Source of the DNA: an uncultured Candidatus Saccharibacteria bacterium
GTDB taxonomy: Bacteria > Patescibacteriota > Minisyncoccia > Phycocordibacterales > JBBTRF01
Reading direction: 5' to 3'
Assembly (NCBI GenBank): GCA_964602975.1
Contig: CAZRTH010000001.1
Span: 5,385 to 69,384, forward strand
Length of the DNA stretch: 64,000 nt
Shown: one piece after another, positions 2,466-3,388 of the stretch
Layout: every line of letters begins with the position of its first letter
Position numbering within the stretch: position 1 is the first letter of the stretch
Notes under the pieces: generated by a model
Told to the model about the DNA's origin: nothing
The model's database searches: none
The model's input: only the letters and a program-made list of their open reading frames with translations
Made by a program: the position numbers and the translations under genes

Positions 2466-2485
2466 TGCTCCGGGAGTTGGGATCG
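2466..2485. repeat. 20-bp direct repeat of tRNA-Asn 3' end (tgctccgggagttgggatcg); second copy at 2639..2658
   Basis: Perfect 20/20 identity with the T-loop/acceptor 3' end of the tRNA, 153 bp downstream of the tRNA 3' end. Confidence 0.8.
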
Positions 2486-2601
2486 GTCACGGATAATTTC
2501 TTCGCCGCCGCTCAGAAATTTCCGCGACCCCGGCTCGCGGTTCGGCCTACTGGCCTCACATTCGCTCCGCCTTTCTCACCCTTACTCACCGGTAGGCAAA
2601 A

Positions 2602-2631
2602 CAAAAAGACGCCACTTTATGGCATCTTTTT
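2602..2631 (-). terminator. rho-independent terminator downstream of tRNA-Asn
   Basis: Minus-strand reading: AAAAAGAUGCCA-UAAAG-UGGCGUCUUUUU followed by GUUUU. Confidence 0.6.
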
Positions 2632-2678
2632 GTTTCGCTGCTCCGGGAGTTGGGATCGAACCAACGACCAATCGCTTA

Positions 2679-3268
2679 CGTTGAATCCATCATTACTGAT
2701 GGCACGGACTATATCATCTCCATGTTTGTCTCGGTCGAGACAAGGTTAGGAGCGAGGGGCTTCGTGGGCACTGGCACCTGCTTCATGCCGACTACTCTTT
2801 AAAAAGATAGTCTCTACACCTTCCGAATGTCGACGCTTCTCAGCATGTTCATTCGGCTCGGCTCGGGGTTGTCCTACTTAGACTGCGTAGGATTTCTCCG
2901 AATTCACCTCGTTTTTCATCCTTGCTTTCGCAGGGAAGCTGCATAATACCCGCTCCGACTTCTCTGTGGCAATTTGCACAAAGGAGTACGCATTTGTCCA
3001 ACTCTGCTCGTACTTTCTCCCAAGACCTTGTATATCCCTTGTCACCTATGCCAAAACTTTTTTGAGTTTTGTCCACGTGATGAAGTTCAAGGGCACCTTG
3101 GTATCGATCGTAGCTACAGATCTGGCATTTGCCTCCTTTATACTCAATGGCCATTGCTTTAACCTTCCGTCGCCTTTTGGCTACGGCTTTGATCAAAGCT
3201 TCTCGTCGGTCGGCGTATTTTCTTCTATCTGAAGACATAATGGAATTATATCAAGAAAGAAGACCGTC
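2679..3268 (-). other. group I self-splicing intron (590 nt) in the anticodon loop of tRNA-Asn
   Basis: 5' splice site follows U (cctgt|agac) and the intron ends in G (caacg|taa). R-like GUGUAGAGACUAUC and S-like GAUAUAGUCC (P7 strands) are present. P-like GAAUUCGGAGAAA and Q-like AAAUCCUACGCAG sit upstream of R. An internal HNH ORF is present. Confidence 0.75.
2849..3238 (-). CDS. HNH homing endonuclease (intron-encoded)
   Basis: 129 aa; CQIC...ELHHVDK...N...LLCANCHREV = CxxC / HH / N / CxxCH HNH motif; lies wholly inside the intron. Confidence 0.75.
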   Translation of the reverse strand: MSSDRRKYADRREALIKAVAKRRRKVKAMAIEYKGGKCQICSYDRYQGALELHHVDKTQKSFGIGDKGYTRSWEKVRAELDKCVLLCANCHREVGAGIMQLPCESKDEKRGEFGEILRSLSRTTPSRAE

Positions 3269-3388
3269 TACAGGCGATTGCTCTACCGCTGAGCTATCCC
3301 GGAATATGTGTGCGTCTGCGGGCTATCTTACCAGAAACACCAAAAAAGTGAAGCCTACGAGCGGTGCCGCCCATGCTACACTTTCCTC

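Follow-up and report, generated by a model that had tools for sequence, protein, structure and literature searches.

The minus strand of the 64-kb stretch of DNA that we analysed (referred to as the window) carries at positions 2640-3303 a tRNA-Asn(gtt) gene split by an intron, as detected by ARAGORN run with introns allowed (option -i). Joining the 5' exon, TCCGGGATAGCTCAGCGGTAGAGCAATCGCCTGT (3303-3270), to the 3' exon, TAAGCGATTGGTCGTTGGTTCGATCCCAACTCCCGGAGC (2678-2640), yields a 73-nt cloverleaf with the anticodon GTT and a G discriminator, and CCA is not encoded. Direct reading of the junctions (cctgt / intron / taagc) gives an anticodon loop CUGUUAA, with the intron lying between anticodon-loop positions 35 and 36 of tRNA-Asn(GUU); the 5' splice site directly follows U35 (3270), its -1 U, and the intron closes with the G at 2679. 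An initial annotation of this DNA had already recognized the split tRNA-Asn(GUU) gene, the intron in its anticodon loop, the loop CUGUUAA across the junction, the U preceding the 5' splice site, and the terminal G, all of which stand, while its boundaries (2641-3302), its intron length (590 nt), and its tRNA length (72 nt) had to be corrected to 2640-3303, 591 nt, and 73 nt, respectively. An intron-less tRNA-Asn allele would read ...GCCTGTTAAGCG... across the exon junction.

With default settings, ARAGORN reported only a tRNA-Glu in the whole 64-kb window and missed the split tRNA-Asn, and a search of the whole window with Rfam at curated gathering thresholds returned only the same tRNA-Glu, missing both the intron and the tRNA-Asn. 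Since both procedures overlook the split gene, such genes stay unannotated. No second tRNA-Asn gene was found in the window by ARAGORN, either by default or with introns allowed. An inverted repeat followed by a T-run adjoins the 3' end of the tRNA and is likely a terminator; the terminator scan did not call it. The genes around the locus are ordinary housekeeping genes. The positions of all features are collected in Table 1.

Table 1. Features of the interrupted tRNA-Asn gene in the window (paired strands are joined by "with")
Feature	Position	Strand	Basis
Inverted repeat, then T-run, adjoining tRNA 3' end	2596-2638	-	Inverted-repeat search
tRNA-Asn 3' exon, 39 nt, UAAGCGAU...CCCGGAGC	2640-2678	-	ARAGORN -i and sequence reading
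tRNA-Asn 5' exon, 34 nt, CUGU at end	3270-3303	-	ARAGORN -i and sequence reading
Group I intron, 591 nt, terminal omega-G at 2679	2679-3269	-	Rfam local search, ARAGORN -i, covariation
TGATATAAT, extended -10-like element (TGnTATAAT), intron positions 17-25; putative promoter	3245-3253	-	Recurrence in relatives
HNH homing-endonuclease ORF, 129 aa, in P1 loop	2849-3238	-	ORF and homology
Internal guide sequence GCAG	2939-2942	-	GCAGC (2942-2938) invariant in 69/69 aligned relatives
P2 hairpin CCCUGC-GAAA-GCAAGG, one C/A mismatch	2920-2935	-	6/6 pairs compensatory; 98% of cells paired
P3, 5' strand	2911-2907, within P3-P6a block 2818-2911	-	Alignment structure and covariation
P4	2901-2896 with 2868-2863	-	5/6 pairs compensatory; 99% of cells pair
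P5	2892-2887 with 2877-2872	-	Structure and covariation
P6	2862-2860 with 2820-2818	-	Structure and covariation
P6a	2856-2850 with 2829-2823	-	Covaries
P7, GACUA with UAGUC	2812-2808 with 2711-2707	-	Invariant in 69 relatives
P7.1	2807-2804 with 2799-2796	-	3/4 pairs compensatory; 99% of cells paired
P7.2 hairpin	about 2789-2763	-	Single-sequence fold only
P3, 3' strand, CCUCG	2757-2753	-	Structure and covariation
P8	2752-2749 with 2721-2718	-	Covariation
P9.0, GU with AC	2705-2704 with 2681-2680	-	Both pairs covary in all 69 sequences; 100% of cells paired
P9, CCAUCA-GUAA-UGAUGG	2702-2687	-	Covariation

Ribozyme core and covariation

A local Rfam search of 1.1 kb matched the Intron_gpI family (RF00028) at 2981-2686 of the minus strand over the full model (positions 1 to 253), with an E value of 1.1e-7 and a score of 37.3 bits, which is below the gathering score of 50 set for this family. 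The Rfam check proposed in the initial annotation thus returned a full-length match, although one that falls short of the curated cut-off; for the same reason, E < 1e-4 was the criterion applied with this model in the survey of such introns in PMC13011429. We then drew a complete core, comprising P1 to P9, P7.1/P7.2, and P9.0, on the window copy. The group I core anticipated from the R-like GUGUAGAGACUAUC and the S-like GAUAUAGUCC was borne out, these two strings forming P7 and being invariant in the 69 relatives described below. The P-like AAUUCGGAG is indeed the 5' strand of P4, whereas AAAUCCUACGCAG, which had been taken for Q, covers J4/5 and P5; the strand that actually pairs with it in P4 is CCCCGA, which faces the P-like string. 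The subclass, which had been left open, is marked as IA by the modelled helices P7.1 and P7.2, located between P7 and the 3' strand of P3; their arrangement resembles the layout of the phage Twort ribozyme.

The fold was confronted with relatives gathered via the intron ORF, for which one genome per species was scanned, giving 136 confirmed genomes; 80 loci were kept, nearly all of them in Patescibacteria assemblies (closest, Ca. Taylorbacteria, 80%). The ribozyme parts of 69 distinct sequences were aligned, and the structure, written on the window copy, was tested as 54 pairs in 12 helices. Standard pairs occupied 92.5% of the cells, compared with 35 to 48% in controls in which the 3' partners were slid by 1 to 3 columns, and compensatory changes on both sides were found in 41 of the 54 pairs, compared with 19 to 26 in the slid controls. 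The covariation score was 0.507, against at most 0.11 for the controls, and none of 500 shuffles came as high as the observed value on any of five measures. Compensatory changes in the 69 sequences backed P2, P3, P4, P5, P6, P6a, P7.1, P8, P9.0, and P9. In P9.0, the two bases following GUCC and the two preceding the terminal G varied in perfect covariation (GU/AC, AU/AU, AC/GU, and GC/GC). P7, being invariant, is consistent with the model yet provides no covariation information. Two competing pairings were rejected. A P7 partner UAGUC at 2794-2790, just after P7.1, can form a hairpin with GACUA in the window copy, but relatives with GUAC there cannot form this hairpin. The first hairpin of the Rfam match, UGCAAAUUGC...GCAGCUUCCC, is regarded as spurious, since it lies in the region coding for CANCH and is mismatched, while GCAG and P2 fit better.

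The U.G pair of P1, which the initial annotation could not assign, is provided by the internal guide sequence GCAG, whose bases pair with the exon CUGU as G.U35, C-G34, A-U33, and G-C32, placing U.G at the 5' splice site. With an exon sequence that does not vary, P1 offers no possibility of covariation. In the window copy, the guide lies 328 nt into the intron, immediately between the conserved portion of the ORF and P2, whereas in ORF-less relatives (locus L029 and published introns) only 5 to 7 nt separate it from the splice site, and P1 is an ordinary hairpin. Since GCAG adjoins the splice site in these relatives, the ORF is an insertion in the P1 loop. P1 of the window copy consists of only 4 contiguous pairs, and a search for P10 gave no pairing of UAAG in the 3' exon with the bases preceding GCAG that was consistent across relatives; the four-pair P1 and the absence of a convincing P10 are the weak points of the model. 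A P1 built from AGACGGU, right after the 5' splice site, with the anticodon stem was discarded, as it leaves a 2-nt loop and is not conserved. The anticodon loop of the tRNA-Asn gene is interrupted by a group I intron that carries a homing-endonuclease gene.

The endonuclease gene and its candidate promoter

The 129-aa ORF reported in the initial annotation is present and intact, and its CxxC...HH...CxxCH motif is that of HNH (beta-beta-alpha-metal) nucleases. The match to Pfam HNH (PF01844) scored 20.2 bits, just below the cut-off of 21.4, while PHROG 2255 ("HNH endonuclease") matched residues 3 to 112 with an E value of 2.5e-30; the closest HMM families of the protein are phage HNH endonucleases. 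NCBIfam gave no match to the ORF, and the hits of a PDB sequence search, to endonuclease domains of group II intron proteins, were all insignificant and confined to the motif level. Homology searches placed the protein among relatives in 1633 clusters, of which the named ones are all Patescibacteria, and the nearest relative shares 86% identity. The full motif was found in one frame in 66 of 72 relatives. An NCBI entry (P0002) is 100% identical to the window protein and is annotated from a later start, which omits 28 N-terminal residues; as relatives conserve these residues, the ATG at 3238 is preferable as the start.

From about residue 100 on, the protein is encoded by the ribozyme itself, namely, by the guide sequence, P2, P3, P4, P5, P6, and P6a. 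Most relatives are 105 aa long and stop shortly after a conserved G-x-G-x-x-Q-L-P, whereas the window ORF continues for 24 further codons through P2 to P6a, its stop codon UGA lying inside P6a. The CAG CUU CCN stretch that codes for Q-L-P also supplies the guide sequence together with the P2 5' strand. At two loci, L029 and L080, a free-standing HNH gene stands beside an ORF-less intron, and the encoded proteins end in ...EKLPTVL and ...TPIPELLF, with no ribozyme overlap and without the QLP ending. That the free-standing copies end otherwise fits a QLP ending imposed by the ribozyme.

The extended -10-like element TGATATAAT starts sixteen bases into the intron, and six bases separate it from the ATG. 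With this gap, transcription would be expected to start at the A of the ATG, and the arrangement suggests that the endonuclease is expressed from a leaderless mRNA. Of the 72 ORF-bearing relatives, 57 have an exact TATAAT within the first 60 nt of the intron, with 9 occurrences elsewhere in the same introns, and TGn precedes 40 of 62 hexamers. We also considered that TATAAT might be a structural element of the P1-loop RNA, or simply AT-rich sequence, with the endonuclease translated from the pre-tRNA or the excised intron. No -35 box accompanies the hexamer, and a promoter scan, which needs a -35 box, passed over TGATATAAT. We nevertheless find this explanation unlikely, though by no means negligible, because the distance between hexamer and start codon was fixed at 6 to 8 nt in 49 of the 62 introns (6 nt in 31, 7 nt in 10, and 8 nt in 8), while the distance between hexamer and splice site varied from 12 to 46 nt. 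TATAAT is, moreover, missing from ORF-less introns, and the HNH ATG is not preceded by any Shine-Dalgarno-like sequence. Ordinary genes of the window are enriched in this 6-nt spacing as well: among -10-like hexamers before candidate starts of ORFs of at least 150 aa, 10 lay at a gap of 6, compared with about 0.7 per other gap. Outside the introns, TTATAAT stands 11 nt before the ATG of the free-standing HNH gene in L029, and no TATAAT was evident upstream of that in L080. A promoter thus remains the preferred role of the element.

Proposed splicing and homing, and relation to known introns

Group I introns at position 35/36 of Patescibacteria tRNA-Asn(GUU) have been described by Nakagawa, Amikura, Omae and Suzuki (mSystems 2026, PMC13011429; preprint 10.1101/2025.07.03.662931), who found 15 such genes in 95 complete genomes. 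According to the same study, this intron class had been listed earlier as "Asn.4Ug" in a tFind survey (Williams 2020, bioRxiv 10.1101/2020.01.27.920355). The published introns belong to subgroup IA, and four of them encode HNH (PF01844) endonucleases (PMC13011429). The intron of GCA_016700035.1 self-splices in vitro precisely at 35/36, as established by sequencing the ligated product, with an omega-G to C mutant as the negative control (PMC13011429). Host tRNA, insertion site, and homology of the window copy all match this family: the ribozyme part is 69.5% identical to that of the tested GCA_016700035.1 intron and 71.8% identical to that of GCA_016699245.1 (Table S3 in PMC13011429), and the window copy shares with the family subgroup IA with P7.1/P7.2, the guide GCAG, the core motifs, and probably the phylum. 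The HNH family is likewise common to the window copy and the published ORF-bearing introns. The window HNH protein is 61% identical (63/103 residues) to the intron ORF of GCA_001029735.1, an intron that also has TATAAT, six bases, and ATG. The window copy differs from the published set in coming from a draft genome outside the survey.

We assign a probability of about 0.93 to the reading that the element is a mobile, self-splicing subgroup IA intron at 35/36 of tRNA-Asn(GUU) in a Patescibacteria-type genome. We infer splicing of the window copy from the homologous tRNA-Asn intron active in vitro (PMC13011429). The pre-tRNA would be transcribed with the intron inside, and the guide GCAG would pair with the exon CUGU, forming the U.G pair at the splice site. 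The core (P3 to P9, P7.1/P7.2, and P9.0) would bind guanosine, and two transesterifications would then ligate CUGU to UAAG, restoring the anticodon GUU. The HNH enzyme encoded in the P1 loop would likely cut intron-less tRNA-Asn genes, repair of which would copy the intron in (homing); both the activity and the target are predicted. Its gene would probably use its own intron-internal extended -10 promoter and a leaderless mRNA, and its last codons would double as the guide sequence and P2.

The window copy could alternatively be a decayed relic, in which the ribozyme needs help to splice, the tRNA gene is a pseudogene, and an intact tRNA-Asn gene lies elsewhere. The Rfam score below the gathering cut-off would agree with decay, and so would the short P1 and the single mismatches in P2 and P4, the latter a non-standard A/C pair; in addition, the window spans only 64 kb of the genome. 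Against decay, all helices of the family consensus are present in the window copy, and the mismatches are shared with relatives, the A/C pair of P4 with two (L013 and L033) and the C/A pair of P2 with one (L009). The ORF is moreover intact and 86% identical to its nearest relative, and the window holds no further tRNA-Asn gene. We therefore consider a relic very improbable.

The identity of the host tRNA was examined at the related loci. At 75 of the 80 loci, ARAGORN found the ORF enclosed by a tRNA that an intron splits, labelling 43 as Asn, about 27 as Thr (TGT or CGT, intron at 33/34), and 5 as His. When re-parsed under the rule that the exon ends in CUGU, the intron ends in G, and the exon resumes with UAA, 73 of the 80 loci proved to be tRNA-Asn(GUU) genes interrupted at 35/36, all with homologous tRNA bodies and G as the discriminator. 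Another tRNA, spliced at shifted sites, such as a tRNA-Thr with the intron at 33/34, has next to no chance of being the host despite these labels, since the two-base shift would make the window intron end in A (…UCAA/CGUAAG) instead of G, the ARAGORN call here is Asn, the "Thr" and "His" loci all re-parse as Asn 35/36, and both the mis-calling of tRNA-Asn introns as Thr 33/34 by ARAGORN and tFind and the 35/36 site, sequenced in the spliced product of a relative, are documented (PMC13011429). The tRNA-Asn(GUU) intron at 35/36 is thus retained as the preferred reading.

The layout of the element recalls two better-known groups. Subgroup IA introns with HNH or GIY-YIG genes are found in phages (T4 td/I-TevI, SPO1/I-HmuI, and the Twort orf142 ribozyme), and the T4 endonuclease gene has an intron-internal promoter of its own, from which it is expressed. 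These share the IA core with P7.1/P7.2 with the window intron but reside in protein-coding genes, whereas the window intron interrupts a cellular tRNA gene and carries its ORF in the P1 loop. The tRNA-fMet group I intron of Synechocystis PCC 6803 encodes I-Ssp6803I and is, like the window copy, a bacterial anticodon-loop intron with its own homing-endonuclease gene. It differs in the tRNA, in the position (33/34), in the phylum, and in the enzyme, which has a PD-(D/E)XK rather than an HNH fold (PF11645, as listed in PMC13011429).

The kind of element found here is thus already known and experimentally validated, the window copy being one more instance from a draft genome; since PMC13011429 described the class, a claim of novelty fails. 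The initial annotation had considered an Asn host with an intact endonuclease gene unusual, which does not hold in view of PMC13011429 and of at least 71 other species-level genomes that share the arrangement. What we add is minor and consists of a covariation-backed helix map that includes P1 and P9.0, a likely leaderless promoter, the dual use of the QLP codons as guide sequence, the abundance of endonuclease-bearing copies in draft genomes, and two loci with a free-standing HNH gene. PMC13011429 makes no mention of an internal promoter or -10 element, of leaderless expression, of an overlap between coding and guide sequences, or of free-standing HNH genes. Whereas four ORF-bearing tRNA-Asn introns were counted in 95 complete genomes, introns with an endonuclease gene are far more frequent among draft genomes of Patescibacteria, with 136 species-level genomes and 1633 protein clusters.

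Because default tRNA finders and the Rfam threshold miss the gene, a genome that carries it would seem to be without tRNA-Asn and would score as less complete than it really is. We tentatively propose, as a combination that we would expect to fail somewhat more often than to hold, that the TGnTATAAT element forms a leaderless expression cassette, that the QLP codons serve as both guide and P2, and that L029 and L080 represent a state that precedes or follows entry of the endonuclease gene into the intron. If this is true, translation of the HNH protein would compete with P1/P2 folding, as both would involve the same RNA, and the intron family would offer a natural series for the assembly of mobile group I introns.

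Two ribozyme variants and one HNH family

Alignment of the ribozyme parts of 69 distinct sequences (alignment A1) revealed a second ribozyme variant in the related loci L029, L055, L056, L060, L064, L068, L069, and L075. The variant lacks P7.1/P7.2 and differs in its P3 and P6 sequences (…UUCCGGGAUAACGGUG…, GUGGGAAC…), while its guide sequence is identical to that of the main type. Seven of the eight loci carry the same HNH gene, the exception being L029, whose intron is ORF-less. Since this gene occurs with both ribozyme variants, one endonuclease family goes with two core types at the same tRNA site.

The window intron harbors an additional pairing possibility within its core, the 5' strand of P7 (GACUA) being also able to pair with a UAGUC located directly after P7.1. 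In the window copy, this alternative hairpin would be a competitor of the catalytic P7. Its formation is impossible in the relatives that have GUAC at the position of UAGUC.

Coordinates of the features discussed (window positions unless a locus is named)
Feature	Position	Strand	Remark
Direct repeat CGATCCCAACTCCCGGAGCA (20 nt, exact), first copy	2639-2658	-	3' end of tRNA-Asn
Direct repeat CGATCCCAACTCCCGGAGCA, second copy	2466-2485	-	173 nt downstream of tRNA-Asn copy
Kinase-like gene	1439-2434
Alternative P7 hairpin	2790-2812	-	UAGUC at 2794-2790
Example starts with -10-like hexamer	7842, 19692, 21948, 23600	+
Example starts with -10-like hexamer	44125, 7762, 5565, 2434	-
Free-standing HNH gene, intact, 105 aa	within L029:2501-3112		30 nt upstream of tRNA-Asn
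Free-standing HNH gene, intact, 105 aa	within L080:2186-2821		58 nt downstream of tRNA-Asn

Sequences flanking the window tRNA-Asn gene

The 3' end of the tRNA-Asn gene is repeated downstream, where the second copy directly precedes the promoter-like TGGTATACT of a kinase-like gene. The pair looks like a scar left by integration into the tRNA 3' end, but the two copies are only ~150 bp apart and an integrase is absent. Comparable repeats of the tRNA 3' end, also downstream, were found at two related loci, L023 and L066.

Many ordinary genes of the window have a -10-like hexamer (TACAAT, TAGAAT, or TATAAT, often preceded by TGn) exactly 6 to 7 nt before the start codon and are devoid of a Shine-Dalgarno sequence. 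Within the window, a hexamer-to-start gap of 6 gave 10 matches, versus ~0.7 per other gap. This spacing, together with the missing Shine-Dalgarno sequence, suggests that leaderless mRNAs are common in this genome.

Related loci with unexpected labels or free-standing HNH genes

The intron-split tRNA-Asn, together with the HNH gene, also occurs at L019 and L057, whose genomes are labeled as non-Patescibacteria (a Simkania sp. MAG and a Gammaproteobacteria MAG, respectively). These occurrences could reflect either a binning error or a real interphylum transfer.

At L029 and L080, the tRNA-Asn genes contain short ORF-less introns of 190 and 186 nt, respectively, and a free-standing HNH gene lies beside each of them. 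P7.1/P7.2 are absent from the L029 intron (alignment A1; L080 is outside the alignment). Both free-standing proteins have C termini without the QLP ending, the conserved codons that double as guide sequence and P2 5' strand in the intron-encoded ORFs. "Collaborative homing" has been put forward as a step in the emergence of mobile introns, and the arrangement at L029 and L080 resembles such a step.
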